Shown: in pieces, positions 1-52,074 of the stretch | How the letters are laid out: every line of letters starts with the position of its first letter | How positions within the stretch are numbered: position 1 is the first letter of the stretch | From: Euglena gracilis | Lineage: Eukaryota | NCBI GenBank assembly: GCA_039621445.1 | Contig: CP154954.1 | Span: 30,322,395 to 30,386,394 of the forward strand | Direction of reading: 5' to 3' | Length of the DNA stretch: 64,000 bases | Notes under the pieces: model-generated | The model's database searches: none | Told to the model about the DNA's origin: nothing | Seen by the model: the letters and a program-made list of their open reading frames with translations, nothing else | Program-made: the position numbers and the translations under genes

Positions 1-1284
1 ATACTTTTTGGCGCCAAAAATATTTGAAAAGGTGCTATTTTTAGCACTTTTCGCGATTTTTCGACCATTTTTTTTGTGGGTCCCCCAGGACCCCCCCAGG
101 GGATGGGTGGGTGGGGGGACCCCCGTCCCCCCCCCCCCCCGGTCTTAAATAAATCAAGAGCGGGAGAGGGTTGGGTGGGTGGGGGCCATACCATTGCCAA
201 GCACGTCGACCCCCCCCCCATTCCCTGCATGGTGGGTGGGGGGGTCGACCACCCCCCCCCACCCTCTGCATGGTGGGTGGGGGGGGGGTCGACCACCCCC
301 CCCCCACCACCTCTTCCCGTGTTTCCGGGAGCACCAATTTTTGGACCCGAAAAAAATTTTCCGGCGCCGGGTGTTTTTTTGACCCGTTTTGGGACCCATA
401 TAGGGGGTCCCCCCCAAAAAACACCCAAAAACCGCATTTTTTCACACCTTCCAAAAATTCAACATTTTCTCAAAATGTTGATTTTGAGAGGTTTTTGAAG
501 CAAAAAAATGCCATTGAAAGTCCAAAAAATTTCAACGAGAAAAAATGGCAGTAAAATTTGACTGTGCCAAAATTTTGTCCACTTTTTTTGACCTTCGTTT
601 TTTTCACCCCCCTCCTAAAAACTACCAATTTTTAACCCTGAAATTTTTGATATTTTTTTGTGAAAAAAATGTGGGTTTCCATCAAAAAATCATGTGTTTT
701 GGGTTCATTTTTCAAAAAAAAATTCAAAAATCTTCCCGGCCAATATCCCCTTTTTCCTGAAATCGGTGAAAATGCTGTGGTGGGTGGGGGGGGTCGACCC
801 CCCCCACCTCCCGGGTGGGGGGGTCGACCACCCCCCCCCCCCCACCAGGCCTTCCCGTTCTGCCCTGGGGGGGTTGTCAGGATTGGCCGACGTGGCCACC
901 TGGCGCCAAAGGCGCCGGATTTTTTTTTTTTGACCAAAAATGTTTTGATTTTTGGCCAATTTTGGCCGAGTAGCCAAAGTGACCAACCCCCTCCCCCAGG
1001 AAGGAGGTGGGAAGTGGGTGACTGGTTTTTGAAAAGTGACTGATTGGTTTTTTGAAAGTGGAAAGTAAGTAAGGGGGTCGGTAAACAATGGTATGGTCCG
1101 GTCCCTTATGTGGGGGGGGGTGTCCCTGCGGAAGCTTGGGCATGGGTTCCGGAGAGAAGCACCAGAAAAAATTGGGCAAGGCGGTCCCCTGCTGGGCTGG
1201 GTGGGGGGTCTTTAAAAGAAGCCGGGGGAGCACAATTGGTCGGCAATCCATGGCCCCTCTGAAGATTAAATCCTCCTTGCAAGG

Positions 1285-1380
1285 ACTGTGAAGTCTGGCA
1301 ACAAGGTGGTTGTGGAGAAGTCCACAGTGCCTGTTCGCTGCAGCGTTGCCATTGAGCGAGTCTTGAAGGCATGCAGTGCT
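1285..1380 (+). CDS. UGDH: UGDH exon ([32 protein letters not shown])
   Basis: EKSTVPV motif; 5' boundary uncertain by a few nt. Confidence 0.85.
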
Positions 1381-4300
1381 GATCAGGGTTTGACGTAAGG
1401 AGGTCGACCGCGCACCGTTTCGAACAATTGCCTTTTGTAACGATCCCCCCACTTTGCACCTATTGCATGCAAGAAGCTCTGGGAGTGTGGAAGCTGAGTC
1501 ACATGAAAATGAAATGCGAGTGGATGGACCGCTTCTAAGCAGAGGAGGGCACCATAAGGAACCTCCATGACTTTTCTTTTGATGATTGCCTCAAAAAACC
1601 CCTATCTGCGACCCACATAGGTCACACATTGGACCCACATAGGACACACTCTGGACCCACATAGGACACACACCCATAGACCCACATAGGACACACTCTG
1701 GCAATGACCCTCTCTGATTCAACCCTGACGACCCACAACGACCCATTGCTGTAATCATTGGTTATACTCTGTTCACATGTTTTGGGCATTAAAAATGCTC
1801 TCCACTTTCCTTGATTACCCCTCTTTCGTGTCAAGTCCAACAAAAATCACAAATATTGAGAACCAAACCTGGATTTTGAAAGCAGGTTGGCAAATTTAGC
1901 AGCACATCACTCCAGAATTAGGAATATGAAAATTATGGCAAAGAAGCATCTGGAAATTTTCTGGGTGTTTTACCAAACCACCCAGAAAGTTTGTTTGTTA
2001 TAATTTTTTTTTGATTGCCCTATACCCAGAGGGTTGAGTTACCCCATCCATTGGCCATGGGTTTGCTCCATTGTGTCACTGTTGTGTGCCACTGATGGGG
2101 TGTTTGACTCCCAAATTATGTTCTTGTCAATCCCTGGTGTGACACCTCTGCCACATTTGAAGTACTGTCAAACCCAGAGCACACCAGTGCTCCCATTTTT
2201 TTCGCCACCATTTTTCACCGGTCATCCTTTCCTCAAAAGTTGGTTCATGACAATCCTGGTCCATTTTTTTCCCACCGAGAGATGCCTTGTCAGAGTCAAC
2301 ACACCACATCGGTGTCATCAGTCTGAGTGCTGACGTGCTGGCGAGTTTCTTGCCGAGGGGACAGCCATTGAGGATCTTCTGAAACCCGACCGTGTGTTGA
2401 TCAGGTATTATTTTGCATATATCTTTTACATATGCAATATAATATATATATATATATATATATGTATTATATATGCTTATTTTAGGGTCAAATTTTTTCC
2501 AACACTTTTAGGCATTCTAAGGAATTTTAAGGCACAATTTTCCAGGGTGGTCCATTGGCGATCCGGGCATCGAACCAACGTTTTTGATTTCGCACGTGGT
2601 CCAAAATCAAGGAAAGTCGAAAAACGCAGTTTTTGAGTTTTGGTTGGATAGACAATGTTTCAGCGATGCCAGAGATCATTTTTCTTCCCGAAGTCGGCCT
2701 GTTTTGCCGAGATTTTGCGTTTCATTTTTGCTCGGTCGGAGAAGATTCTGCTGGTCTCATTTCTTAAGTCATTTTAACGCATTTTAAGGCATTCTGGCCA
2801 AAATTTAAGGTGCATTTTAAGGTATTTTAAGGCTTTTTCAAGGTACTTTTAATGATGATAATAATTATAATAATGCCTGGCGCTGATCGGTGGTTCTCAA
2901 ACACCCAGCGGGCAGAAGGCCTGTGAGCTCCTCTGCTCTGTGTATGCACGATGGGTGCCGCACAGCTGATTTTGGTTGCACATAGTTTCATTTCAACTTC
3001 CATTTCCATCCATTGATGGTTTCCAGTTTTGTGTGTTTCTTTGATCCTAGGTCCCCTTTTTTGTGTTGGTTTTTGGACAGCTCATTGCGAATTGTTTATT
3101 TTTGCCTTTTTAACAGATCCCAAAAATCCAAAATAAACAAAAAATACAATTTTTTTTTGCTGGACACCCAACATGTTTAAACAAAAAAAATCTTGTGATG
3201 GAGACTCAAGCATGTTTGCACTGCTCAAAAAACGAAAGTTTTTTTTTTGAGAAATTGCATGAACATATTTTCTGTATTTCAACAAGTTTTCAACAAGGCG
3301 GATGATAATTGGGTAAGGCTTTCAAAAAGTTAACTCCAAATGTTGAATGGTTCTTTTTTTTAAATTATTTTTTCTGTTAATCTTTTTGTCAACCTTGTTT
3401 GGCTCAATTTTGGAGAAGATTGGAACAAAATGAGTATGATTTTTTGAAGAAAAAAAATGACAATTCTCAGTGACATTTTAAATGGACACAAGAGGACAAC
3501 TTTTTGCAAGGATGCTTTTTACTGCTGTCTGCAGTGTAATTACGCGGGAAAAATTTCTTCTCTTCTTCTGCCCTGTGCTCGGCACGTGCTGCTTGGATCT
3601 TGCTGGAAAGGCGGTAATTCGGACCCTCCACAAAAACAGTGGGGGCGATGCCTGAAGGGGGGGGTTCCCCCCAGTGCCTGCTATTATATCAAACCCGGGA
3701 GGGGAGCTCCGTTCGTGGTGGCACACCCTGCTGCAGCCCTGCCCAGGGATAGTTGGGAAGCCCTTTGGTTTTGAGGTAGGTAGTTGGGGGGTCCGGACCA
3801 GGGTTTGATATAAGGAGGGCGTACATGGTTTAGGTGGGGGGGGTGTCCCCCCCCCACCCCCCCCCCTCCTGGCCCGCAGGGGGGGGGGTCCGGCCCACCC
3901 CCCCCCCCACCTGCCAGGGGGGTCCGGACCGACCCTCGGGGGTTCCCGGGACCCCCCCAAAAAGGGTCAATTTTTTCCTCTGGCGCTTCGCGCCGAAATT
4001 TTTTTGCATTTTTGGCACATTTTTGCCCAAAAAGTGCCCAAAATGGCACTTTTGGTCGTTTTGGGGGGTCAAAAATTTTCGGCCACCCTGACCGCGCACC
4101 TGTTTAGGTGGGGGGGGTGGGTGTCCCCCCACCCCCCCCCTCCTGGCCCGCACGGGGGGGGCCCGGACCCCCCCCCCCCACCTGTCCTTATATCAAACCC
4201 TGGTCCGGACCCCCCCCCGTTGTTGGAGGGGTGTTCAGCAGGTTCCAAAAAATAGTTGTTTTCCTTCCAGCACTTCACTGGAAAGTGTAATTTTCACCTT

Positions 4301-7300
4301 CTTCCTCACTTTTGAGCATATTGCCCACCCATTTTTGGATGTTTTGGTGTCTTCCACACAAAAAAAAAACGGTCAAAAAGTATTTTTTTTGGGGTTTGGT
4401 CTATTTTCAAATGGAATCAGGGATTTTCCAACAATTTTGGACTGGTATCCGTACCTTTGCCCGTCCACAAATTGAAAAAAAAATTTGGTCCCATTTCAGT
4501 GACGAGGTTGGAGGGAGGGAGTCCGACCCCCCCCCCCCCCCCCCCCGCCCCTCAAGGCCTCCCATGCGTCCCTGGCCCTGCCCCTGACAATCTGATGATG
4601 GCCGGGATTTTTCTTTTTGCAATTCTGGTCCTGAGTGGGCGCGCCAGTCCCCCTCCCCCCAAGGTCAGCTGCCTCTGCGGGAGCGGATCCTGACCACCAA
4701 CCAGTGGTCCAGCGAGCTCAGCAAGCTCACCGCCAACGCGTTTCTGGCGCAGCGCATCTCCTCCATCAACTCCATCTCCGCCGTCTGCGAGGCCACCGGG
4801 GCGGACATCGACGAGGTCGCGTTCGCCATCGGCCGAGACTCTCGCATTGGCCCCAACCGGGCCGATACTGTCGATACAACACAACACAACACAAGGCAAC
4901 TCAACCCAAAACACCACACCACACCACACCACACTACATTACAACACAAACCGCGCCGTCGTTTTGTTGGTTTGTGTTGCACAAAAAGGGCGTTCACACC
5001 AGAGTTGCAACACATTTGCCACAGGAGACATGATTACCCAACAAATTAAAATTTTAAAAGCTCCGGGGTTTACTTCTTAAAAAGGTGACGGGCCCACCCC
5101 AAAATCCCAGTGACTGCTGTCCGAAACGTTGTCATGGACAGGCACCCAGAAGCCAGAAACCCCGGATCTTAACACAGGACCTGCCTGGCCGGAAGTTTCT
5201 CAAGGCGTCCGTTGGATTCGGTGGCTCCTGCTTTCAGAAGGACATCCTGAACCTGGTCTACCTATCCAATTCTTTGGGGCTGCACGAGGTGGGGGATTAT
5301 TGGTACAGCGTGGTGACCACCCCTTCGCTGAGACATTTTTTCACTGCACTGGCAATTGCCAGGAATTCCTTCGCCAGCCAGATCCTCCAACAACATGGCC
5401 GTCAACAATTCTAGAAAATTGAATTTTCTTCTTCCCATCAGGCTTTTCTTTTTAAGTGAGGTGCCGACCCCACGGGGGGGGGGGGGCGGTCACGGGGGGG
5501 TGCTGGGGCAGGCACCAGGCTTGTGCTTAGTGGGGGGCCTACCCCACGGGGGGGGGGGGGGGGTGCTCGGGGCAGGCACCCCAAAGCACCTGGTCCGACC
5601 CTCCCCCCTCGCGGGGGGGGTAGGGTTTTGGGGGGTGCCTGCCCCTAGCAGGCACCCCCCTCCGACCCCGGAAAAGGCCATTTTCAATGAAAGTTTTCTG
5701 GGTCCCCCCCCCGGACACCTATCCCCCCCGGGAGGGTGTGCCTGCTAGGGGCAGGCACGCTATAGCACCCCCCCCTCCCCCCCCCGGTTGGTAAGCACAA
5801 GCATGGCAGGCACCAAATAGCACCCATAGGGGGGTCCCCCCTCCGACCCCAGCGCCGAAGGCATCGGGGGCCCGGAAAAGGCCATTTTCAATGAAAATTT
5901 TCTGGGTCCCCCCCCCCCGCACCCCACCCTATAGCACCCCCCCCTCCCTCTGGTCGGTAAGAAATAGTCTGCTTCCCATTTTTCAACCTTTTTCCCCACA
6001 GCACAAAGTTGTCCAGGAGTTTTGAGCCTTTTTGAAACGGATCGAAAGTGCACCGAGTTCCACTTCCTGTTTCAGCGCAGGAGTGGAAGCAGCGATGAAT
6101 GACTATCAACGCCGGCGCTTTGTGGAGATGATCGTGCGGACCATGTTTGACACAGTGACCAACAAGAAGATTGCAGTGTTGGGCTTTGCCTTCAAGAAGG
6201 ACACGGGCGATACGCGGGAGAGCTCCGCCATTCCAGTGTGCAGCTCGCTCCTGGATGATGGAGCACTGGTCCACTGCTACGCCCAGGGACACGGTGCCAA
6301 GTTGTGTCACCACCTGTTTTTTTTGTTATTCCGAAGATTCTTTTTAAACCCCCCCCCTGCCCACCAACCCCCCTGTTTACTGACCACCCCTGGTCGGGGT
6401 TGCCGGTCAGGGGGTGCGTGCGACACCCACCCCCTGGCCAGGGGTTTGGGTTACCTAAAAAAAAAAGCTTTACAGAAGCAGGGGTTTTGGCACTTTGGTC
6501 TTATGACCATCCCCCAGCAGGAGATTGCAGATATGGGGGTGTGCCACGGTCGGTCGGTAAGGGGCTGGTGGCAGGTTGCAAATTCTGCAAAAATTCGGCA
6601 CCTTCGCTGACAGGTCGTTTCCTCTGGGGGATATTCTTTGTCATTGGACCTGTCAGTGGACCCGGGGGGGGGGGGCCTCCAGTTGGCCAGCAGCCTTTTC
6701 CCAGACCATCTCATCAACAAGTTTTATTTGTTTTCCAGGGACTTCGATTTTTTGATTCGACCCCAGCCGAACCCAGTTCCAGCCGGGGGACCCCAAGGGG
6801 GTCAACCGGTAGCCTTTTCCAACCGGCGTAGGAACTCTTTTGCTCATTGGAAGCAAAAACACGAGGACAAAAAAAATCTGGCTCCGGCGATTCTCTGACT
6901 CACTTTTGTCTATTTTGGCCCATTTTGCACCTCCAAAAGCAAAAAAAAACTACGTTCCGAGAGGAAAAAATTTATTGGGGGTTGGGGCAAAAAAGAAGAA
7001 TATTTTTTGGGGACTGAGGGAGGGCAGAGACTGCCAAAATTGTTTTTTCCTGTTGTTTCCTTTTCTTGTTGGAGGTGTGGGGATGAAAAAAATAAAATGA
7101 AATTCCTCCTCTTTTTGGGCATTGGTGTAGGGGTGGGGAGGAGTGTGGGGAGTGCAGGGGGGGGGGGTGGCGGTCAACCTGCCAAAGATTTTTTTCTTTT
7201 TTCAGATGTAGCTCGCATTCAATATTGGTTACCTGTGAGGAGGCTCTGCAGAGCCTCCGCGGAGGCACCCAGGCAACCAGCCTCTGCTGAGGCTCAGGTA

Positions 7301-10300
7301 ACCAGCCTCCACAGAGACTTGGGTAACCAAAAGTCAGGATTCCACACAGGGGTTTTTTTAGTCGTGGACCCCCGGGGGGGGAGGGTGGGTGGGTCCGGCC
7401 CCGGGGGGGGTCCCCCTGGAGGGGGGTGGGATTTCCTTTTCGGCGCCGAAGGTGCCGAAATTTTTTGAAAAGGTGCTTTTTTTAGCACTTCTCGCGATTT
7501 TTCGGCCATTTTTTTGTGGGTCCCCCGGGACCCCCCCCCCCCCGGCCCGGGGGCCCCCCCCAGGGGGGTGGGGACCCCGCCCTCGGTCTTAAAAATCCCC
7601 TGATTCCACATTTGCACGGGCCCCTGCTGGCCTCCCCCTCTTTGGCTGAATTGACGCCCTAATTGCAATAGAGTCCCTGACCCTATTCCTTCAATTAACC
7701 ACAAATACATTTGATTTTGGGACTTTTTGTTCATACAATCACAATTTTGATGCAATACAAACTTTGGCCAAAGGTGGTTCTGAAACCTAAACATAGAGGT
7801 CGCATGGGCCCACCAAAGGGTCGGGCCGACCTCTGGATGAAAATCTTTTAAAGGGGGGGGTGATGCAATGGCTTGGCCATGGTTGACCATGGCCGGAAGC
7901 CCCCCCCCCCCCGATAGAAGCGCGGGGCTGCTGCAAGCGCAGGGTGAATAAAGGACAATCCAAATCCAAATACACTCATGCTGCCGAAGGCGGCGGTCCA
8001 CCACAAACGCACCCCCATTTGATGAGTTTTTGAAAGGAGATCAACAAAAATTGCAGCCAGGGTCCAAATAGAAGCGCACCTAGGCTTCCATTGGGGGATG
8101 GGTTTATCCTAGTTGAGTGACTCTTGGACCCTGTTGGCCAATCAAACAACGCTTCAACTGCTGCATTGGAATCAGGGCGTCGCTTGATGACCCCCTCCCC
8201 CCCGGAGTCCAGCTCAGAGGCTGGAAAACTTGGACTGGCTGGAAATAGGCTGCTGGCTGACCTCCAAGGGTACTGGAATTGGGTCCATCCTGGGGTCGAA
8301 CCAGGTGCAAGGAAAAATCGAAACTGCAAAAACCCCCAGAAGCTGCTAATTATGCAAACAATTGATCTTTTCGACCCCAAAAATTTGCCCTGGCCCCAGG
8401 TAACCCCTGGGTTCCCCCGGAGGTGAGCCGGCCCAAAGCCAACCCATTTTTTTTGCCAATTTTTGGCCCATTTTTGAACCAGGATTTTTTTTAAGTCAGA
8501 AGATCCGGGTGGGTGGGTGGGTGGGTCCTGGACCCCCCCCCCACCCGGGTCCCAGGCAGGAGACATGGGTATGGGTTTCAGCGCAAAGCGCCGAAAGTTT
8601 TTTTCTTTGGGAAATGGCCTCAGACGCATCCGGGGTCCCCCCCCCCCCCCCGCGTCCCACGCCAAGCGGGGTCTTAAAAAGAAGCCTGCCCACCCTGGTT
8701 CAAGGCTTTCTAAGACTTTCAAGGCATTTTGGCCCAAAAATTTAAGGCACATTTTAAGGCATTTTAACGTTTTTAAAGACACCTTAAAAAATGATGATGC
8801 CTGGTTATGGGCAGGCAACCACAGCACAATGCACCCCCCCAGGTTGGTGAAAATAAAACCTGCCCCAAGGTTTCCCATACGACCACAAGCCAGGTAAGGC
8901 GGTTACCCTTGACGTTCCCAACTGGAGTTCTTACCTCTGGGCTACACGAGCCTTGGCACCTATCCCTGCCATGACCCTAAGGTCACTGAGGAGCAAATGC
9001 TTCAAGACCTGAACGAGGTGGCAGAGGGCAACCAGCACCTGCTGAACCAAATAAAGTCTAATTACCGGATTGAGAAGTCGGCCGTGGAGGCGTGTAAGAA
9101 TGCCCACGCCATTGTGGTGTTGGCGAGGGAAGTGCAAATCGCCACCTCACCACCCCACTGATCAGTTGTTTTTTTTTGTGTCAGATTTGTTGGGCTTGGG
9201 GGCCATGATGTCGGCCCAAACAAACAGCTCCCACGGTTGATTGTGACCCCGATTGAAGATTGTCCCTGGAAATTTGACTCTCTCTGTTCAGCTTTCGCAG
9301 AGTCCCCACCAGGACGGCGCTGAACCCTCTCCCAGTAAAGCTTGCTGACCCGGAAGGTTGAACTTCCCTACCGAAGACCGAATGGGACGAGTTCAAGATG
9401 CTGGATTACCAGCAGATCTTCAAGGAGATGACGAAGCCCGCCTTCCTGTTTGATGGGCGCGGGTACCTGGACCTGAAGGTCAGGCCATTGCTCCGGGTGG
9501 GGGATACGATGAACCTCCCTTCTGTGTCCAGACCGCATGGTAATACCTCCCCGGCGGCAACTGTCACCCCCTCAACTTTTGGCAATTTGCCAATGGCAAA
9601 AAAAAATGCACCAAAAGATGGAGTCTTTGGAAGTTTTTGTTGTTGATCAATCTCTGGATGTACGCATGAACTCGGGATTTGAATGCTCAAGAATGTGCTT
9701 GAAGGGATCAGAAGTGTTTTCAAGAGATCGGAAAGTTACTGATTATTCGTCTACCCCAGTGGGCAAATGTCACCCCCTCTGCCCGCCTTTTTGCCGTCCC
9801 CCAATATGTCAGCCCCCCCCCCCACATCTGCTGGCTAAATTGTTGTGTGACAATTGCTGGGGGGGGCAAGGTTCAATATACGGAGGGTGTGCGGGGTTTA
9901 GGTGGGGTGGGGTGCCTCCCCTCCTGGAACAGGGGGTCGGACCATGCCATTGCTTAACACCTGTCCAACTACCCCCCCCCCCCCCCGGGGGTGACTGATT
10001 GGTTTTTTCAGAGGGAACTGACTGGTTTTCTGGCCAAGACCCCCCGGGGGGGCAGGCCCGAAAATGAAAAGTGGCTGGCCTGGCACCAAAGGCGCTGGAA
10101 TTTTTTTGGATTTTTTGAGATTTCTTGGCAAATGTTCATTGCATATTCAAGAGTGCCCCCCCCCCCCCGCCCGGGGGGTAAAGTGACTGACTGGTTTTTC
10201 GGAAAAAGTGACTGACCGGTTTTTTCAGAGTGGAAAGTGACCCCCCGGGTCGCCAAGTAATGGTATGGGTCGGACACCCTCCCCCTGCCAAGGGAGGGGT

Positions 10301-10720
10301 TCCAGACCAACCCTCCCCCAAAAAATCAAAAAACATAGTTTAATTTTCCTTCTGACACTTTTCACTTTGCGCTGGAAAATTTTGACAAATTTCGCCCAAA
10401 AAGTGTCCAAAATGACATGTTTGCCATTTGGGGTTAATTTTTTTTGGCCCGCCGCTTCGCGCTGGCCGAAAATCAGTCAGCCGGACTGCGCCACTGTTTA
10501 GGTGGGGGGGGCACCCCACCTCCCCCCTCCTGCACCGGAGGGGAGGTCCGACCCCCCCCCCCCCCCCCCCTTATATCAAACCCTGGGGGGGGGGGGGCAG
10601 CCCTCTCCAGAAGTTTCCCGCACGGCTGAGTGGAGAAGCCGCGGCCTGGAGCCGGCCCTGCGGGAAATCGGCTTTGATGTCTTTTCCATCGGCCGGACAA
10701 AGGCCCAGCGGTACAATTGA
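1285..10720 (+). CDS. UGDH: UDP-glucose 6-dehydrogenase, 5'-partial, spliced: join(~1285-1380,2141-2176,2343-2398,2885-2959,4677-4854,5193-5314,6091-6280,8973-9121,9376-9477,10654-10720)
   Basis: The joined exons give one open frame (1071 nt, ending TGA at 10718-10720) with colinear UGDH motifs: [62 protein letters not shown] (catalytic Cys), [40 protein letters not shown]. The N-terminal exons lie upstream of the window; the first exon start is approximate. Confidence 0.95.
1381..2140 (+). other. Nonconventional intron 1 (3+4 geometry)
   Basis: GAT-CAGGGTTTGAC ... GTCAATCCCTG-GTGT; 10/11 paired; no GT-AG. Confidence 0.85.
2141..2176 (+). CDS. UGDH: UGDH 36-nt exon ([12 protein letters not shown])
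   Basis: Supplies the conserved LSNP preceding EFLAEG; both flanking introns have terminal stems. Confidence 0.85.
2177..2342 (+). other. Nonconventional intron 2
   Basis: AGCACACCAGTGCTC pairs with GAGTGCTGACGTGCT (11 WC + 2 GU of 15); CAC at +4..+6, GTG at -8..-6. Confidence 0.85.
2343..2398 (+). CDS. UGDH: UGDH exon ([19 protein letters not shown])
   Basis: Conserved motif. Confidence 0.92.
2399..2884 (+). other. Nonconventional intron 3
   Basis: GAT-CAGGTATTATT ... AATAATGCCTG-GCGCT. Confidence 0.9.
2885..2959 (+). CDS. UGDH: UGDH exon ([25 protein letters not shown])
   Basis: Conserved motif, in frame with neighbouring exons. Confidence 0.9.
2960..4676 (+). other. Nonconventional intron 4
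   Basis: GCA-CAGCTGATTTTGG ... CCAAGGTCAGCTG-CCTCT (11 WC + 2 GU). Confidence 0.9.
3799..4202. mobile_element. MITE with CAG...CTG ends, nested in intron 4
   Basis: TIR CAGGGTTTGATATAAGGA / TCCTTATATCAAACCCTG; flanked on both sides by GTCCGGAC (8 bp, palindromic). Confidence 0.85.
4677..4854 (+). CDS. UGDH: UGDH exon ([32 protein letters not shown]...DSRIGP)
   Basis: Highly conserved central helix. Confidence 0.95.
4855..5192 (+). other. Nonconventional intron 5
   Basis: AAC-CGGGC ... GCCTG-GCCGG; short 5-bp stem; no GT-AG. Confidence 0.8.
5193..5314 (+). CDS. UGDH: UGDH exon ([24 protein letters not shown]...YWYSVV)
   Basis: Catalytic GGSCFQKD motif. Confidence 0.95.
5315..6090 (+). other. 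Nonconventional intron 6
   Basis: GAC-CACCCCTTCGCTGAGACA ... TGTTTCAGCGCAGGAGTG-GAAGC (15 WC + 1 GU of 18). Confidence 0.9.
6091..6280 (+). CDS. UGDH: UGDH exon ([10 protein letters not shown]...[15 protein letters not shown]...VHCY)
   Basis: Conserved C-terminal domain motif. Confidence 0.95.
6281..8972 (+). other. Nonconventional intron 7 (3+4 geometry)
   Basis: GCC-CAGGGACACGGTGCCAAG ... CTTGGCACCTATCCCTG-CCAT. Confidence 0.9.
7347..7602. mobile_element. MITE with perfect 8-bp TSD, nested in intron 7
   Basis: TIR CAGGGGTTTTTTTAG / CTTAAAAATCCCCTG; TSD ATTCCACA at 7339-7346 and 7603-7610; related copy at ~1-160. Confidence 0.9.
8973..9121 (+). CDS. UGDH: UGDH exon ([10 protein letters not shown]...[12 protein letters not shown])
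   Basis: DPKV and AHAIVV motifs. Confidence 0.92.
9122..9375 (+). other. Intron 8, nonconventional stem; a 1-nt shift reads GC...AG
   Basis: AGGGAAGTGCAA (9126-9137) pairs with TTGAACTTCCCT (9358-9369), 11/12. Confidence 0.85.
9376..9477 (+). CDS. UGDH: UGDH exon ([34 protein letters not shown])
   Basis: TEW and FDGR motifs. Confidence 0.93.
9478..10653 (+). other. Intron 9, nonconventional stem; overlaps an in-frame GT...AG alternative
   Basis: GGT-CAGGCC ... GGCCTG-GAGCC. Confidence 0.8.
9867..10585. mobile_element. MITE of the 3799-4202 family with secondary insertions, nested in intron 9
   Basis: Left end CAAGGTTCAATATACGGAGGG, right end CTTATATCAAACCCTG; G-runs of at least 8 on both flanks. 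Confidence 0.7.
10654..10720 (+). CDS. UGDH: UGDH last exon ([21 protein letters not shown])
   Basis: LREIGF..SIG C-terminal motif and stop codon. Confidence 0.9.
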
Positions 10721-10861: not shown

Positions 10862-10928
10862 TGTCACAACAGAAATGTACTGCTCCTGAGAATTCCCCCT
10901 CCCCAGGCACCAAGTGGGGCTGGTTTTG

Positions 10929-11355
10929 CAGGGGGGGGAAATTGATATCCGCAATTTTTCCGCAATTTCCGCAATTTTTCCGCAATTTTTTTTGCATTTT
11001 TTTTCGCAGAATTTTTTCCCACCACCGAAGATGGAAGATGAGTTCAAGCCATTCTTCAAATGGATCAACAGGTGTGCTATTGTGTTTTGTCCCCCCCCCA
11101 GTTTACCAATTTTTCTCACAGGTGCACCACTGGTCACAGGATTGGGTGCGTCCTACCTGTGCAAGAACTTCAAGCGTGTTGATTTGTGCTCGCCTGCATC
11201 GACGTGGGTGTTGTGGTGTTCTGAACCTCACAATTGAAAAATTTCTAAGTCCCCTCAAGCAGAAATGTGTATATTCCGGATATCAATTTTTCCGCAATTT
11301 TCCACAGTTTTTCCGCAATTTTTCCGAAGGCCTCCGATATCAATTCCCCCCCCTG
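10929..11355. mobile_element. MITE with 7-bp TSD
   Basis: TIR CAG(G)nAAATTGATATC / GATATCAATT(C)nTG; TSD GGTTTTG. Confidence 0.88.
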
Positions 11356-13644
11356 GGTTTTGGACGGAAGGTCCCTACACTGCGGTTCCAATTGCGATTA
11401 CACTGTGATTTCCTTTGGACGTCCTTTTTTTGCATTTTCTTTCCAGAGGCTTGCAAATGCAATTAACCCCCCCCCCCAAATAATACCCCCCCCCCCCCCG
11501 GTTTATTATTTGGGCACCCGAAGTCGGGGTCCAGGGGGGTTTATTATTTGGGCAAAAATTTCGAAGACAAAAATTGACCCGAAAACCCCTCCACAGGCTC
11601 CAATGGTCACTTTTTTGGCATTTTGGGGCTTTTTTTTGAAAATTGGGTGCTTTTTTGGCAGGGCTCCATCAAATTTTTTTCCAAAGCGTTCAGAAAATTG
11701 GGGCATTTTCTAGAGGAATTTTGCAGAATGCGTATACCAGAACTAACAAAAGAGCAATAGTCCGACATGTTAGGGATATGGTGATCAAACACTTCCCAAC
11801 ACCGCACGGGATGGGTCTGGGTGGGGGGGGGGAAGTGTTTGCCAGACGAGGCACTCCAGGGCACCGCGAGCCTGAAAGTGGTCCCCCAAATAAGACCTGA
11901 CCCAAAATTTGGGCCAGGTCCCAAAAAGCGTCACTTTCCAGGTTTCCAAAAACACCCAAAATTTTTCATCTGTGCTCTACGCCATGTGTCAACATGTGTC
12001 ATGTGTGTTAAAAATTGAATTCCCCCAGTGTTGTTGTGCTTCAAAAGTGTCAAATAATTGTAATCCAGGAAAAATTTTCATCTCCAGCGCTTTGCACCGT
12101 CAGTGGGAGTCTGGAATTGGCGGGGGGGTTTTTTTATAGATTTTTTCTTTGTCGGCCCAGTGGGGGGGGGGCTTCCTTTTGGGGAGGTCTTACAGTAATA
12201 ATAGTGGGCATAATAGGACACCTGAAAATTGGTGGGTCAAACCTAGGGCAGAACGGGAATCGGCCAAACCGCCAGGGTGGTGGTGTGGGGGGGGGGGTCG
12301 ACTACCCCCCCCCCCTGCATTGGCGGTGGTGATGGTGTGCACACACCATCAGGGGGACCCTGGACCCCCCCCCCCCCCGGGGCTGGTGGCCAGGCCGGAC
12401 GAAGGGGTAAAGGGCACCAAAAAGGCAGCCACAGTGCACACAGGGGGCTGGCTGGTGGCTGTTTTCCCGTGTCCAGCAAAATGGCTAGCCAGTGGACCCC
12501 TGCCTCCCGGGGCTTAAGCAATGGCCTGACCAGATGGTCACCCCCGGCCGGGGGCTTAAGCAATGGTCGGTATATAGGGGTGGTCGGTGGACAAGAGGAC
12601 AGGGTGGGTACCCCCCCTTTGCCCAACGACCACCCCTAACCCCCGGTCGGGGGTTGTAGATCAGGGGGTGTGTATGACCGCCCCCCGTGGTCGGGGTTGT
12701 AGGTGACCTTGGGAAAACAGGGGTTTTTTCAGGTCAGGGTGTGTATGCCCCCCCCCCCCCGTCGGGGGTTGTAGGAACCCGGTCGGTGAGCAAAAGCACC
12801 TCGAAACTGACATTGACCCGGAAATTTTTGGTTTTGAGGACGGGCAAACACTCAGAACGCCGGTTCAGGTTGCCGCCTGAACCGGCGTTCTGGACACGTG
12901 TTTGCATCGAAGTCAGGGTCAAGATAAAATCCTTACCCTGACCCTACTCCTGAAATAGCCCAAAATTTTTGTCTGTTATCTCACGACAGACTCTCCCCCC
13001 AAAACCCTTGGGCCCGGAAGGGAATAGCCCCTTCTGAGGGCTTTGAGCGGATTCTGGGGTGACCATCCTGGGGGGTCGGGCTGACTTTGGGATGGGACAC
13101 GGACCTCTGGGTCGCTTCAAAAATGCCTGATTTTGCTTTAAAAATGAAACAGAATGCTCATTTTTTGAAATTTTTTGAACGCTCCTCATGCGGAAAACAC
13201 CAAACCATTAAAAAAATTGGCAATATGCTCAAAAATGAGGGAGGAAGTTGTTTTTTTGTTCATTTTCCGGCGCGCAGCGCGGGAAAAAATTGCCATTTTT
13301 GAAACCTGCTGAGGAGGGTCTGGATACACCCCAACATCCAGGGGGGGGGGTCGGCAACCCCCCACCGCCTGATTCGATACCGACGGGCTTCCCATCAATC
13401 CCTGTGGAGGTTTGGTTCTACATAAGGAGGGTATCACCCCTTCTTGACTGCCAGACCCCGCTGTGGCCGGACCCCACCCCAAGGTCAAGTTTTATTTAGG
13501 CGATTTGCACCGAAATAATTTTGGAAATTTTCGCAAGTTTGCCAAAGGTGCCCAAAACGGCATCTGGGTTGATTTTGGGGTTTCGGAAAAATTTTGGCCA
13601 AAAGTCGGTCATCTTGGCTGCATGTCTGTTTGTTTGAACCAGGG

Positions 13645-15991: not shown

Positions 15992-16443
15992 CAGGGGGGG
16001 GGGAAATGCAACTTGCATAATTTGCATTTTTTTGCATAATCGGCTTTTCCCGAAATTTGCATTTTTTTGCATTTTTTTGCATTTTTTTGCATAAAATATT
16101 TTCCCCGGAAAAAATTTTTGTAGTTGGTTGCCATATGTTTGAATTTTTTTGCATATTTTTGCATTTTCTACATATAATATTTTGCCCTGGAAAAAATTTT
16201 TGTTGTTGGTTGCCATATTTATGGACTTTTTTGCATTTTTTTTGCATTTTTTTTGCATAAAATATTTTGCCCTGGAAATTTTTTTTGATCTTAGGCAGCA
16301 AAGCTCTGTTATAGTCCAGCTTTTTCTCAGGTTTTTCATGCAAGTTGCATTTTTTTGCATTTTTTTGCATTTTTTTGCATTTTTTTGCATTTTTTTGACT
16401 TGCATAATTTGAAGGGCCCAGTTGCATTTTTTCACCCCCCCTG
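15992..16443. mobile_element. MITE with 7-bp TSD and internal (TTTTTTGCA)n repeats
   Basis: TIR CAG(G)nAAATGCAACT / AGTTGCATTTTTTCA(C)nTG; TSD GCTTATG. Confidence 0.88.
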
Positions 16444-21106: not shown

Positions 21107-21515
21107 GTAAAAAAAATTTGCAACCGTTGTCACTTGTAGTGAAATGATGTTGAGGAAGGTCAACAAAAAAATTTGTTCGTGTAAAAGAAAACTTGCATTC
21201 GCAAAGAAAACCTGCCTTTCTGGCAATTATGGCTGTCCAGCCTCGAACACAAGCAAACTGCACACCTAGAATCAGTGTGCGCTCAGATTTCAAAGGCAGC
21301 TATGGCTGTTCAGCCTCAAAGCAAACCGCACACCTGTGAACAGTACAGGTGCAGATTTCACTGCAGTTCATTATACTGTGGTGTGTTCCTGTGTGGTGTG
21401 GTTCGGTGTGGCTGTCTGCTGCTGCTGCTGCTGCCGCCTGCTGCGTCTGCCTTCCTGCTGCGGCTGCCACTTGCCTGCTGCGGCTTTCTGTCTGCTGCGG
21501 CGGTTTGCCTGCTGT

Positions 21516-21820
<305 letters not shown>

Positions 21821-25922: not shown

Positions 25923-28580
25923 CAGAGCCCTGCAAGCCAGCATTCCCCATTGGGTCAAGGCAGGAGCCTGCACGGAGGTATTAAACCTGATAAGGGAAGG
26001 GGTTATGGCAGATATTCCCCTCTCCCCTCCGATGCCCTTAAAAGTTCCCTTCAAAACTCCTCAAGAAGTAATGACTGCCCAGAAAATTCTGAGAGAATAG
26101 GAATGTGCAGGGGCAACCAAGCAAATCCCCCCAGAGGATGCAAAACATTTTGTCCCTTATTTATCATTTCCAAAAAAGAAGGGGAAAAGTGCGTACCAGG
26201 CAGCATGAACACCGCGCATAGCAGCAGTCTGCAGAATGTACAATGTCATGCTAGATAGTACTATTCCATGTTCTGCAACACAAATTGCAGAATTAGGAAT
26301 AGCCTATCCTATCTCGGATCTGCCTCCCCTTTCACAGGTGGTATTGTTATTTTGTTTCACATTTCATTGGCCCAAAAGGGCAAACCAAGATTTGAAGGTT
26401 TGAACTCCGCTAGGAGAACACAACTGGAACTGAAGTTCCGAAATCCCAACTGGTTTGCCTTGTGCTCTGCATAAGCCCAAAGGCAATAAAAACTAATAGT
26501 TAAGTGAAATACTTTCTTTTTTGTTACTCTCCTTGTTCTGTTCCCACGGGAGGGTGTAAGTAGGCCGACAGGCAGTGGGAAGTAGAGTCAGGGGACGTAC
26601 ACTAAAAGACAAAGGAAAGACTAATTTCACATTGTCGACAGTTAAATATCCATTTCACCCCCAAGAAGTTCAGATTGGAACACATGGGAAACATCTTCCC
26701 ATACTTAAGAAAAGGTTGGTTCTGTGGAACAATAGGTCTGAAAGATGCTTATTTCCACTTAAAACTGCACAGCAGCCTGGAAAAACACGTTTGCATGCAA
26801 GTGGGGAGGAAACATGGCAATTTCAAGCTGCATGCCACAGAAGTTTATGACTCTCATGAGAGTCTGGGAAAGAAAATGGAGAAAGGAAGGAAAGGAAGTT
26901 TTCATCTACCTGGACGACATTATACTTTTAGCCCCCAGCAAAAATAAAGCAGCCCAAGATTTGGCAAAATGAAAAGGACCTTATTCTGGCAGGTTTCAGA
27001 TTAAACCTCCCCAAATCCTCTCTGGAACCCACACAGGAGATAAAACATTTGAGCCAGTGTATCAACTTGAAAAAAGGACAAAAGGAAATTCCTCAGGAGA
27101 AACTAAAATCCTTGAGAAAGGAGCCAGGCAAAGTGCTCAGAGCACAAAAAAATGAGCTGCAGAAAACTCAGTTCCATTGGGGCAAGTCAGAAGCTATTTA
27201 GTCTCAACGCCATTTCTAAGAATTCTGACAGATCAACTTTGCAAAATGGTGGAGCTACACACCAAGTGGGGTTGGGACCACACCCACAAGGGGTCAAGGA
27301 TCAGATTGTGGAACTAAAAGAATTTTTAAAGCCCGGTGTGGGCAAGTCATTTCAATCACAAGAACTGTTCTCAGACAGCAGCACCTGGCAGTGGGGGGGG
27401 GGGCTGGACAAAAACTCAGGTCAAAAGGTCCAAGATTTCTGGAGGGACCTGCATGTCCGTCACATCAATCAAAAAGAATTGATGTCTGCAGTGGAAACTG
27501 TAAAGGCTTTGGCAAAACCGAAACAAACAATTGTTCTTCATGTGGACAGCAAGGTGGCAGTGAGTCATTTAACAAAATGGGGAAGAAAAAAAAGCAATAC
27601 CTATATTACATCCTGAAACCCCTTCTGTACCATTGCGAATAAAAGCAAATAAACTTGCAGGTGGTTTGGGTTCCCACCCAGGAGCAATTGGCAGACTCCC
27701 TGACCGGGCAGCAAAAAGATCCAGGGGATTATACCCTAAACATTAGCATTTTTCACCGGATTCTGGAATTTTTCAATAAGACATCACCACAGAGGTGGAC
27801 ATTTTTTGCACACCCAGCAACAAAAAAAAATACGCAAGTTTATTTGCCCATACCCCCACCAAGGGGCTTTGTTGGCGGATGCTCTGAAGACAGATTTAAG
27901 GGGTCTCTCCACAGTTTATGCAAACCCTCCCTGGAGCATCGGGTTCAGAGATTAATGTTCAACCCAGACCTGATTTTTCTGTTGATCGTACCCCACTGGG
28001 CTTCGACATCATGGTGGCGCCAATTAATGTCAATCAGGCAGCCATGCAGCAAAGTTTTGCTGGTACCCCCCCCAGTGGGGACTCTTCACCAACTGCTGGG
28101 GGGAGGATATAGCCCCCCCAACGTGGAATTTGGCCTGCTTGATTATGTCAGACAAATACTACAATCCCAGGAAGTTTCAATGTCCAGTATCGACACTTAC
28201 ATAAACAATTTGCGAAACGTCAACAGATAGGACTCAGCCGTGAGGGCATTGGTGGACCGATTGTTGAACAAAGGGTTGCCTCTGCGGCACTGCACAATCC
28301 ACAGGATGGCTGAGGCCATCCTTGATCTTGCTGTTCACAGCCTCAACACTGCACGAAATGCATATGCAGCAGCATTGTTACTCCCAGAGTTTGGGTTATT
28401 GAGGTATTCCCCTCTTTTTTCTCCATAGAAAGGAAAATGGAATTACAATGTCTTCAAGCATGCCCATTTTTGAGACCCCACTGATCTCCTGGAGAACATC
28501 ATCAGAAATTCAAAACCCCTCTTGGAACTATCTGTGAAAGAGCTCAGAAGCAGACTCATCCTTTGTTGGAGGCTTTTGGC
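25923..28580 (+). mobile_element. Decayed DIRS-type retrotransposon (RT, RNase H, Dam-like MT, start of tyrosine recombinase)
   Basis: LKDAYFH, FIYLDDII (~26902), FSDSS..WGG, HINQKEL, LHVDSKVAV, QLADSL, VYANPPW (27914-27934); many frameshifts; 5' part probably at 23737-23994, split off by the TRIM. Confidence 0.85.
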
Positions 28581-28581
28581 C

Positions 28582-29522
28582 CGCGATTTCCGCGATTCAG
28601 ATCGCGATTTTCACGCACCTGAAAAATTTTTCGTGTAAGTGAAAAAAAAATTGCGGGAAATGCGACGGAAAGCGTGCTTTTCACGATTCCACTCGCAATT
28701 TCCGCAATTCAGATCACGTTTTTCGCGAATCTGAAAATTTTTTCGTGTAAGTGAAAAGTTTTTCGCGGGAAATGCGACGGAAATCATGCTTTTCACGATT
28801 CCGCTCGCGACTTCCGCGATTCAGATCGAGATTTTCGTGAACCTGAAAAAAAATTGTGAAAATGAAAGAAATTTAACCGGAAATGCGACGGAAATTGTGC
28901 TTTTCACGATTCCGCTCGCGATTTCCGCAATTCAATTCGCGATTTTGGCGAACCTAAAATTTTTTTTGTGCAAGTGACAAGTTTGTCGCGGAAAATGCGA
29001 CGGAAAACGTGCTTTTCAGGATTGCGCTCGCAATTTCCGCGATTCAGATCACGATTTTCACGAATCTGAAAATTTTTTCGTGAAAGTGAGAAATTTTTCA
29101 CGGGAAATGCGACGGAAAACGTGCTTTTCACGATTCTGCTCGCAATTTCAGGCGATTCAGATCGCGATTTTCGCGAATCTGAAAATTTTTTCGTGAAAGT
29201 GAAAATTTTTTCGCGGGAAATGCGACGGAGAACGTGCTTTTCACGATTCAGCTCGCGACTTCCGCGATTCAGATCGTGATTTTCGTGAATCTGAAACGTT
29301 TTTCGTGAAAATGAAACATTTTTAACCGGAAATGCGACAGAAATCGTGCATTTCACGATTCCGTACGCGATTTCCGCGATTCAGATCACGATTTTTGCGA
29401 ATTTGAAAATTTTTTCGTGAAAGTGAATTTTTTTTGCGGGAAATGCGACAGAAATCGTGCTTTTCACGGCGACTTGCGTGATTCAGATCACGATTTTTGC
29501 AAATCTAAAAAAATTTTCGTGA
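28582..29522. repeat. ~112-bp tandem satellite, ~8 copies
   Basis: Unit CGCGATTTCCGCGATTCAGATC...GGAAATGCGACGGAAA..GCTTTTCACGATTC. Confidence 0.92.
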
Positions 29523-50839: not shown

Positions 50840-52070
50840 GGGTCATTGCTGTTCTGAACCCTCTTGGAGGCGAGCTCTTAGCAGGCTTTTGGCCAACAAG
50901 GCTGTTAAATTCCCGTGGCCAACAAGGCTTTCAATACAAGAGAGGAACAGTTCCTCAGTTGCCTTGGCTGCCAGTGCTGTTTTTTGTCTTGTCTGTCTGC
51001 CTTGTGGCTTTTGTCGGAGATTGGAGCCGAACCAAGGATCAAACACAGGACGGGTGAGATATAGGCGAGCTCGTTCTGCAATTTTTCTCCCTACCGTCGC
51101 CCAGTTCGATCGCCCGCCACGCTGCAAAGGACAAAGCACCGCTTTGGCGAACGCCCACAAGCGATGCAGGGTTTCCCAGCCAGGTTCCCTGTTGAAGTGC
51201 CTCAACGGTTGCAGGTAGGTTTGATTGACATTGAGGAGCGCTCCACGTGGCAGGTATACAAGGGTGCCTGCATCATCAAAAGAAATTTCCTCAAAAGTTG
51301 GATGAAGGGAGGGTGGGCATGGAGCAGAGAATGCATGGAGCAGAGAAACCCAGCAATGTGATTTTGACCAATGGGGGTCGGTGGGGGTCCAGCTGGGGCT
51401 GGTGACGATGCTGCTGCGGTTGTTGCCACTGAGGATGAAGAGCACCCATAGGGGGGTTGGAGAACTTCAGGAAAGGCGCCGCCTGGTTTGCCTGCATACA
51501 CATGGCCCCAACATCTGACGGGGGGGGAAAGTCCTGGTCCTTGTGTGCCAATCGGGTTCTCCATGATGACCATGGAGCACGTTGAGGGCTGGCCTTGTTG
51601 GCAAATGGTTGGAACTGTACAGGGGGGGGTCCCAAGGTTTGACCAACTGTACTGCCTTGTCCCCAATTCCCCCATTGGAAAGGGGATCTTGGTTCCCAAA
51701 TTTGCCGGGTCCATTGTTCTGATTCAAAGGCTGCGTGACCTTCACCCGCCAGAGCCTCCACGGCGCATCCCAGTGTCCGACTGTTCCCAAACGATTACCT
51801 TTCCTTCGGACACGGAAAACACAAAAGAGCGATTGCATAATTTGCGCAAAGCAATATTCGGTTTCCCAAAAGTATCCGCACCGGGCCCTTCTGGCTTGAG
51901 ACCTGACCACCTCAAGGCCATGGTTGGAGACTACCCACGGGCTTGTGGAGACGACCTCCTCGAAGTGCTTGATACCTTCATCTGTCGAGCAATTACAAAC
52001 GGTGTTCACCCCGGCACGGCCCCAATTCTTTCCTCCACCAGGTTGACACCTCTGCAAAAACAAAACAAAA
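50840..52070. mobile_element. Rearranged CRE-like fragment (50840-~51500 on -, ~51711-52070 on +)
   Basis: WETLHRLWAFAKAVL..GGR on minus; LRDLHP..SAPGPSGLRPDHL on plus; both homologous to 59374-60279. Confidence 0.85.
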
Positions 52071-52074
52071 ATGT

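Follow-up and report, generated by a model that had tools for sequence, protein, structure and literature searches.

Nonconventional introns of a Euglena gracilis UDP-glucose 6-dehydrogenase gene and free CAG...CTG elements: a partly supported link through 8-bp duplications

The origin of euglenid nonconventional introns and the way in which they are removed have been open questions since the 1990s. In a 64,000-nt stretch of Euglena gracilis DNA (contig CP154954.1 of assembly GCA_039621445.1, positions 30,322,395 to 30,386,394 of the forward strand; hereafter the window, whose own numbering is used throughout), a UDP-glucose 6-dehydrogenase gene carries nine such introns, some of which enclose free repeated elements with similar ends. 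The question raised by this locus is whether the 3 nt and 5 nt lying outside the terminal stem of these introns are the two parts of an 8-bp target site duplication (TSD) left by a miniature transposable element with inverted repeats (MITE), in which case cutting 3 nt before and 5 nt after the element would restore the exon exactly. We consider that these are nonconventional introns of which at least some most likely began as insertions of hAT-like non-autonomous MITEs with CAG...CTG ends, a reading that we hold with little more than even confidence. It sharpens a known hypothesis and is partly supported: the free elements, one intron arm and a published young intron (gapC of E. agilis) speak for it, while the flank identity, the introns with only 7 nt outside the stem and the single-copy intron interiors do not.

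Nine introns and the nucleotides outside their stems

The introns lie in the 3′ two-thirds of a plus-strand gene (1277-10720) recognized from its protein match and its RNA joints. Translation of exon sequence 6095-6280 gave 62 amino acids that are 100% identical to the EukProt entry EG_transcript_14324 (P0004, 420 amino acids), which carries Pfam UDP-glucose/GDP-mannose dehydrogenase domains, and the next-best matches of this peptide were UDP-glucose 6-dehydrogenases of other euglenids; judged by these matches, the gene is that of a Euglena gracilis-type UDP-glucose 6-dehydrogenase. When P0004 was compared with the window by tblastn, ten exon pieces were found on the plus strand from 1276 to about 10720, with a few amino acid differences. 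The exons are 1277-1380, 2141-2176, 2343-2398, 2885-2959, 4677-4854, 5193-5314, 6091-6280, 8973-9121, 9376-9477 and 10654-10720, the last with the stop codon. Since the first ~98 residues of P0004 were unmatched, the 5′ exons are placed to the left of the window. The RNA loose end at 1277 runs on into upstream exon sequence and puts the acceptor of the upstream intron at 1276/1277, where the exon begins with a T and the region (1256-1277) has no AG and no CTG at -8 to -6; the matching donor lies outside the window.

Exon borders were compared with RNA data of the same species label, consisting of two raw-read RNA-seq runs (X21 and X22) and an RNA contig set (X1), together with a DNA-like run (X20); 15 of 489 joints were listed. 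Exon RNA depth was about 30-200 per orientation column, and introns were at about 0 except in repeat-containing bins. Eight of the junctions inferred from the sequence coincide with RNA joints (1379>2140, 2176>2343, 2959>4677, 4854>5193, 5314>6091, 6280>8973, 9121>9376 and 9477>10654), each with 150-480 reads per run and zero in X20, so that eight of the nine introns are confirmed by RNA. For intron 3 (2399-2884), the 15 listed joints of 489 do not include one; this intron is based on the protein match and on a 967-nt X1 contig carrying the neighbouring joints, whose length can be explained only by a skip of exactly 486 nt within 2343-2959. Those same 15 joints include no back-splice rows and no joint in the DNA run that would indicate an empty site or intron presence-absence.

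At exon positions 2894, 2942, 4836, 6259, 9399 and 9460, a second letter occurs in about two-thirds of the RNA reads, and at these six positions the X20 DNA contigs have the second letter alone; they also show many differences in the introns. Taken together with the residue differences from P0004, this suggests that the gene has two alleles, paralogues or strain versions, with the same introns in both.

With the 5′ spacer fixed at 3 nt within the slide freedom of each junction, the ends of the nine plus-strand introns can be read directly. Intron 1 (1381-2140, 760 nt) reads gat-CAGGGTTTGAC...GTCAATCCCTG-gtgt, with CAG..CTG ends, a spacing of 3+4 (or 2+5) and a junction that slides 3 nt. Intron 2 (2177-2342, 166 nt; gag-CAC...GTG-ctggc, 3+5), whose joint also slides 3 nt, has CAC/GTG in place of CAG/CTG, and intron 3 (486 nt; gat-CAGGTATTATT...AATAATGCCTG-gcgct, 3+5) has CAG..CTG ends. 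In intron 4 (2960-4676, 1717 nt; gca-CAGCTGA...TCAGCTG-cctct, 3+5) the outermost pair is +4:-6, and two nested MITEs lie inside. Intron 5 (4855-5192, 338 nt; aac-CGGGC...GCCTG-gccgg, 3+5) is a CGG/CTG variant, while intron 6 (5315-6090, 776 nt; gac-CAC...GTG-gaagc, 3+5) has the only junction that cannot slide. Intron 7 (6281-8972, 2692 nt; gcc-CAGGGA...TCCCTG-ccat) is again 3+4 (or 2+5) and slides 1 nt. Intron 8 (9122-9375, 254 nt) reads ggc-GAGGGAAGT...ACTTCCCTA-ccgaa and has GAG..CTA in the 3+5 register; its +4:-6 pair is a G/A mismatch, and the next 8 pairs are in register. Finally, intron 9 (9478-10653, 1176 nt; ggt-CAGGCC...GGCCTG-gagcc, 3+5) slides 2 nt.

The first-pass annotation had counted seven of nine introns in which the stem runs from +4 to -6 and leaves 3+5=8 intronic nucleotides outside, and direct reading reproduced this count exactly. 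In these seven the terminal stem pairs +4, +5 and +6 with -6, -7 and -8; introns 1 and 7 are one base short on the 3′ side and sum to 7 (3+4). The end-to-end duplex was more stable than that formed with a shuffled 3′ arm in all nine introns, by a large margin in introns 4, 6 and 7 and by a small one in introns 5 and 9. Every downstream exon begins with a purine (9/9) and eight of the nine junctions are slidable. At the eight RNA joints the skipped segments end in TG..TG, GA..GC, GC..CT, AA..GG, GA..GC, GC..AT, GG..AA and GG..CC, none of them GT/GC-AG. Once anchored, each intron has G or A as its first base and a base other than T as its second, the exception being intron 9 (ggt..cc), which has GT but no AG.

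CAG/CTG at +4 to +6 and -8 to -6 has been described in euglenid nonconventional introns (Milanowski et al.; PMC3935182, PMC4770533). Nomura et al. (2025, PMC12501133) give the splicing code 5′-N3CDG...CH'GN5-6|R, with which 61.2% of E. agilis nonconventional introns comply, and report from knock-in experiments that splicing needs a spacer of 3 nt ahead of CAG and one of 5 nt behind CTG, the latter also working with 6 nt and poorly with 4. Four of our nine introns (3, 4, 5 and 9) follow the strict code N3-CDG...CH'G-N5-6|R in full; the others depart from it through CAC/GTG (introns 2 and 6), GAG/CTA (intron 8) or a 4-nt 3′ spacer (introns 1 and 7). In their non-GT/AG ends, terminal stem, CAG/CTG or CGG/CTG, exon-start purine and slidable junctions, the nine are ordinary euglenid nonconventional introns; nothing essential sets them apart, and the mixture of deviating cases matches the published pattern.

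Free elements with CAG...CTG ends

All 72,900 CAG..CTG pairs lying 50-3000 nt apart in the window were scanned for perfect, non-homopolymeric flank repeats. Only repeats of 8 nt stood out (7 seen, 1.11 expected), with no excess at 5 nt (75 vs 71), 6 nt (19 vs 17.8) or 7 nt (4 vs 4.45); repeats of 9 nt numbered 2 against 0.28 expected, and those of 10-11 nt 0 against about 0.1. Four of the seven 8-nt cases have inverted-repeat ends (3799-4202, 7347-7602, 3744-4574 and 5439-5971). When the CAG class was filtered for terminal inverted repeats (TIRs) of at least 10/14, three perfect 8-mers were found in 729 pairs, whereas re-pairing of the flanks predicts 0.09. With the remaining 63 terminal trinucleotides, matches were scattered only and lay mostly in tandem-repeat or homopolymer-rich classes, with the one exception of a CAT..ATG element at 9943-10267. 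Tandem repeat tracts occur at 21515-21820 and 28579-29522, one of them 'ASQP'-type and coding-like on the minus strand, the other an array of ~110-nt units that yields spurious flank-repeat matches in scans.

Free MITEs with CAG..CTG ends and 8-bp duplications had been pointed out at 3799-4202 and 7347-7602, and both stand, with 8/8 flank repeats within a class enriched window-wide. The first is a 404-bp copy of what we call family A (3791-4210 with flanks), the ends of which match over their first 18 bases (CAGGGTTTGATATAAGGA); it is bordered on each side by GTCCGGAC, a duplication perfect over 8 bp, and its summed X20 depth is ~6.5e5. It is enclosed by an outer element of 831 bp at 3744-4574 (3736-4582 with flanks), with ends CAGGGATAGTTGGG / CAGGGACGCATGGG (10/14) and its own perfect 8-bp duplication, GCCCTGCC. 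Intron 6 contains a 533-bp element at 5439-5971 (5431-5979 with flanks) with CAG..CTG ends and a TIR of 9/14; its 8-bp duplication, CTTCCCAT, is perfect, and the X20 depth of bins 5336-5979 is high. In intron 7, among others, lies the 256-bp MITE at 7347-7602 (7339-7610 with flanks), with ends CAGGGGTTTTTTTA / CAGGGGATTTTTAA, the perfect 8-bp duplication ATTCCACA and an X20 depth of ~2.3e5. Intron 9 holds a second family-A copy at 9867-10585, whose right end equals the TIR at 19/20 and whose duplication is uninformative because it is flanked by G runs. TIR identity among the free elements is 9-14 of 14, and the geometry of those with CAG..CTG ends satisfies the published splicing code. Bins holding free elements have a summed X20 contig depth of ~1e4-6.5e5 vs ~27-50 in unique bins, a figure that should not be read as a number of copies, although it does show that this DNA run contains a great many nearly identical contigs of the free elements. 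In a self-BLAST of the window, the copies found in 64 kb were too few and too diverged for family consensuses.

Further elements differ in their ends or duplications. The 325-bp CAT..ATG element at 9943-10267, nested in the second family-A copy, has a perfect 8-bp duplication (GGTCGGAC) and belongs to a second element type with CAT(A/G)CCATT...ATG ends, also represented at 187-1095, where the flanks match at 5/8 (GTGGGGGC / GTCCGGTC); targets of this type resemble the GTCCGGAC motif found within the MITEs themselves. A family-B element with CAGGGGGGGGAAAT ends lies at 10929-11355 (10922-11362 with flanks) and is bordered by the perfect 7-bp duplication GGTTTTG. The element at 15992-16443 is built like family B and loosely similar to it, with the 7-bp duplication GCTTATG, and both share CAGGGGGGGG ends. 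The element at 8480-8688/8697, whose ends are like those of the 7347-7602 family, is flanked by inverted copies, TTGAAC before and GTTCAA after. Exact metagenome matches to the 20-base family-A TIR were set aside as chance, since the four loci (L001-L004) matched at one end only and had one unrelated flanking sequence in common.

Ends beginning with CAGGG are typical of Ac-type elements, and P elements make duplications of 7-8 bp. The first-pass annotation had left the choice between the P and hAT superfamilies open. The 8-bp duplications, the short TIRs beginning CAG(G)G, the high copy number, the lack of coding capacity and the mutual nesting of the free elements are all as in hAT-superfamily MITEs (Ac/Ds, Hermes type), from which they differ in that two of them have 7-bp duplications and no transposase was present in the ten ORFs (open reading frames) scanned. 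We regard the free elements as hAT-like, with P still a candidate, since duplication length and ends alone do not prove a superfamily.

From free element to intron

A search for the family-A TIR 20-mer with at most 3 mismatches gave four matches in the window, where 0.01 would be expected. Two are the ends of 3799-4202, a third is the right end of 9867-10585, and the fourth lies at 1384-1403. The last of these is the 5′ arm of intron 1 (+4 to +23), with 18/20 identity to the TIR and beginning exactly at +4, and the bases after it also resemble a subterminal family-A motif. In intron 3, the last third is ~77% similar to 8699-8798, both ending ...GATGAT(..)GCCTG, and parts of the intron are 71-78% similar to other loci; its X20 depth is raised locally (~1,500 at 2718-2719, ~31 at 2693 and ~71 at 2556). 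With similarities that are partial and a depth that is raised only locally, intron 3 was not accepted as a whole MITE and was left as 'partly repeat-derived'. Family likeness is confined to the 5′ arm of intron 1 and parts of intron 3, the other intron interiors being unique; a clear tie between an intron end and a MITE TIR is seen in the window for one arm.

Remnants of duplications were looked for by comparing the 8-mer before the 5′ arm with the 8-mer after the 3′ arm, flanks being re-paired across introns in the permutation. Introns 1 to 9 have 3, 3, 6, 3, 5, 3, 3, 3 and 3 matches, 32/72 in total. The degenerate TSDs previously seen in intron 3 (GTGTTGAT / GCGCTGAT, 6/8) and intron 5 (GCCCCAAC / GCCGGAAG, 5/8) were counted correctly, as was 3/8 for the rest, and intron 1 (GTGCTGAT / GTG-TGAC) reaches 6/7 with one gap, a score of 6 being attained in 1.5% of trials by random 8-mer pairs from the window when one gap is allowed. 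Among the registers compared, the 8-nt one gave the best total. An eight-nucleotide direct repeat has been reported at a recently gained nonconventional intron in gapC that is present in one E. agilis strain only (Milanowski et al. 2016, PMC4770533); it is an independent match to the prediction that young introns should carry 8-nt repeats.

The presumed pre-insertion sites (last five plus first three exon bases) also resemble one another. For introns 1 to 9 they are GTGCTGAC, ACCCAGAG, GTGTTGAT, GTGCCGCG, GCCCCAAG, GTGGTAGC, GCTACGAC, GTGTTGAC and CTGAAGGC. When all 8-mers of the spliced coding sequence of the same gene were taken as background, G1 (7/9), T2 (6/9, P 0.005), A7 (6/9, P 0.005) and Y5|R6 (7/9, P 0.0009) were enriched, as were GTG at positions 1-3 (5/9, background 0.024) and GAC at positions 6-8 (3/9, P 0.0006). 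The consensus is GTGNY|GAC; three sites read GTGNTGAY, and five of the nine upstream exon ends have GTG at -5 to -3. T2 and A7 correspond to the two bases that are fixed in nTnnnnAn, the target preferred by the hAT element Hermes, which makes 8-bp duplications (PMC10368747), although both bases together are present in only one of the four free CAG elements. The duplication of the free family-A copy (GTCCGGAC) shares the outer GT..AC with the intron sites. A palindromic target was rejected (8/36 complementary pairs vs 8.66 expected, P 0.66), and the outer G1T2..A7C8 still recur.

A number of observations weigh against a transposon origin in this form. The total of 32/72 in the 8-nt register, as compared with 2.83 matches per non-self pair, has a permutation p of 0.066, and a shift of -3 is nearly equal (29); when one gap is permitted, the sum has a p of 0.11 and the number of introns scoring at least 6 a p of 0.083. 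The permutation tests are conservative, because several insertion sites resemble one another. Matches at positions 1-5 are at chance (16 vs 15.9, p 0.54), and all of the excess comes from positions 6-8, where the first 3 nt of the intron are set against the first 3 nt of the exon (19/27 vs 13.3 expected, p 0.005); this one-sidedness is the chief finding against the simple 8-bp reading for this gene, since neutral decay should hit both intronic parts alike. Two of the nine introns sum to 7 rather than 8; these include intron 1, which alone shows clear homology to a MITE, yet the duplication of the free family-A copy is one of 8 bp. At 95% identity or more, none of the introns is a high-copy element in its own right, and X20 depths of ~30-45, in bins mainly in introns 1, 2, 5 and 8, mark the interiors of these four as single-copy. 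Among the free elements, two of six have 7-bp duplications and 8480-8688/8697 has no direct flank repeat. When the ten largest of the remaining ORFs (23-62 kb) were scanned with Pfam, neither a hAT nor a P transposase turned up, nor did a hAT dimerization domain; such an absence from 64 kb says little, however, since MITEs are mobilized in trans. The site-consensus tests were post hoc (8+3 features tried, n=9), and Y|R and R-A-C are already published border preferences that may be splicing signals. Lastly, one gene and nine introns were examined, because the other long ORFs of the window are retroelement-like or without assignment. The 8-nt register is thus the best-scoring one without being significant against re-paired flanks, and the partial flank matches of introns 1, 3 and 5 do not make a significant set; the flank sequences of this gene support the 8-bp reading weakly.

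Since the flank excess lies wholly in positions 6-8, we kept alive the explanation that the junction repeat is only ~3 nt long, either as a cleavage-site preference shared by both cuts (R-A-C / Y|R) or as a short duplication, the 8 being accidental. It would agree with the published border preferences (PMC4770533), in which 51/55 introns begin with a purine, as do 55/55 of the exons that follow, and the second exon base is A in 43/55, and with the finding that the exon-start purine is functionally needed (PMC12501133). Yet the permutation test already discounts shared preferences and self-pairs are still higher, introns 1 and 3 match in positions 1-5 too, and the repeat at the young gapC intron is one of 8 nt. 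Moreover, synthetic introns built solely on the CAG/CTG, spacer-length, paired-stem and purine rules do splice, with no spacer sequence rule named in PMC12501133, which suggests that junction repeats are not a splicing requirement. On balance a repeat of ~3 nt seems to us quite unlikely.

A broader doubt is that the agreement of 3+5 with the duplication length could be a coincidence. The offsets could be set by the geometry of an RNA-cutting enzyme, such as a duplex-measuring nuclease leaving a 2-nt stagger, and the introns could arise otherwise, for instance as filler DNA at repaired staggered breaks, the MITEs merely sharing CAGG...CCTG ends. In PMC4770533 the 8-nt repeat is indeed taken to be the mark left by repair of a double-strand break, related diplonemid introns have been proposed to be cut in the manner of RNase III (PMC12621601), and 3′ spacers of 5-6 nt and, weakly, of 4 nt are tolerated (PMC12501133). 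The flanks of our nine introns, not significantly identical in the 8-nt register, fit as well. However, three independent coincidences would be needed: introns and MITEs would have to share their terminal trinucleotides, both would have to arrive at 8, and the arm of intron 1 would have to be homologous to a MITE TIR from +4 onward. As a staggered 8-nt break is also the product of a hAT transposase, repair and transposition are hard to separate, and we judge a coincidence unlikely rather than implausible.

The relationship could also run the other way, with the repeat families descending from introns, for example through reverse transcription and integration of circular intron RNAs. Excised nonconventional introns are reported as full-length circles (cited in PMC11282704), and retroelement genes are present in the same window. 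But the free copies carry different perfect 8-bp duplications that abut CAG/CTG directly, instead of the 3+5 spacer bases of a parent intron, and they nest in one another at GTCCGGAC-like sites, as cut-and-paste elements do. We consider descent of the elements from introns very improbable.

Insertion, excision and published context

If the introns did originate from the MITEs, a transposase acting in trans would have put the elements into exons, duplicating 8 bp, and the inverted ends of the element would fold into the stem needed for excision. Machinery reading this terminal RNA stem and cutting 3 nt upstream and 5 nt downstream would remove the stem-bounded element together with 3+5 = 8 nt, and the insertion would be tolerated because the transcript comes out exactly as before. 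Decay would later affect the interior and those parts of the duplication that lie within the intron, the stem being kept through compensatory change. The 3+4 introns 1 and 7 could stem from 7-bp duplications or from loss of one base of the 3′ spacer, which was tolerated at reduced efficiency in a published assay (PMC12501133).

Such a scheme leads to a stronger proposal, to which we give somewhat less than an even chance, that the excision system is matched to one transposon class: it would recognize the hairpin formed by hAT-like MITE ends and remove the element plus one duplication length (3+5=8, or 3+4 if 7). Exonic insertions would then be phenotypically silent at birth, because element and one duplication length are removed together. 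If true, this would explain why such introns are most of the introns in Euglena and why the offsets are 3 and 5, the Y|R and R-A-C borders would be a transposase target preference seen twice, and the machinery would be expected to contain a factor measuring from the CAG/CTG stem. Should 3+5 equal the length of duplication made by a class of resident MITEs, existing tools would allow a direct test of the hypothesis. Even if the reading fails, the free elements are the first concrete MITE families that we could connect with the hypothesis, their ends and duplications being defined.

As the first-pass annotation had stated, a transposon origin has been suggested in general terms. A MITE origin of euglenid nonconventional introns was proposed in 2014 (PMC3935182) and again in PMC11282704 (2024), where CAG/CTG is treated as a 'TIR' and border repeats as 'TSD-like', whereas PMC12501133 calls the origin unclear and its main text does not contain the word 'duplication'. 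In the full-text literature searched, with supplements and subscription papers outside it, we found neither an explicit link between 3+5 and an 8-bp MITE duplication nor a description of free Euglena MITEs with CAG..CTG ends. What is added here is the explicit arithmetic and the free elements; the general idea is not new.

The nearest parallel is with introners (Micromonas, Aureococcus, dinoflagellates, Fritillaria), in which a DNA transposon inserts in an exon and its duplication lets removal from RNA restore the reading frame (PMC11282704). Introners use the spliceosome, their duplication supplying a splice-site dinucleotide, whereas in Euglena excision would be non-spliceosomal and guided by a stem, with the duplication length split 3+5 between the cut sites. 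Introners also form recognizable multi-copy intron families, which the nine Euglena introns do not clearly do. If the reading is true, Euglena would be a second and mechanistically different case of transposons making introns on a large scale, owing to a host that is able to remove them from its RNA without a trace. Giroux et al. in 1994 (cited in PMC3935182) reportedly described a maize Ds element processed as an intron, likewise a non-autonomous element of the hAT type that sits in a coding exon and is taken out of the RNA; there the sites are cryptic spliceosomal ones and removal is usually imprecise, while in Euglena it would be exact by construction.

The ten-ORF Pfam scan recovered only RVT_1, RT_RNaseH and a sub-threshold Dam match. 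Retroelement remains occupy 53029-54409, where a plus-strand reverse transcriptase ORF (RVT_1, E 2.6e-23) overlaps an RNase H ORF on the opposite strand (E 1.1e-22). The sub-threshold Dam methyltransferase match is in ORF 51452-52846, and further long ORFs lie at 27-38 kb and 59-62 kb.

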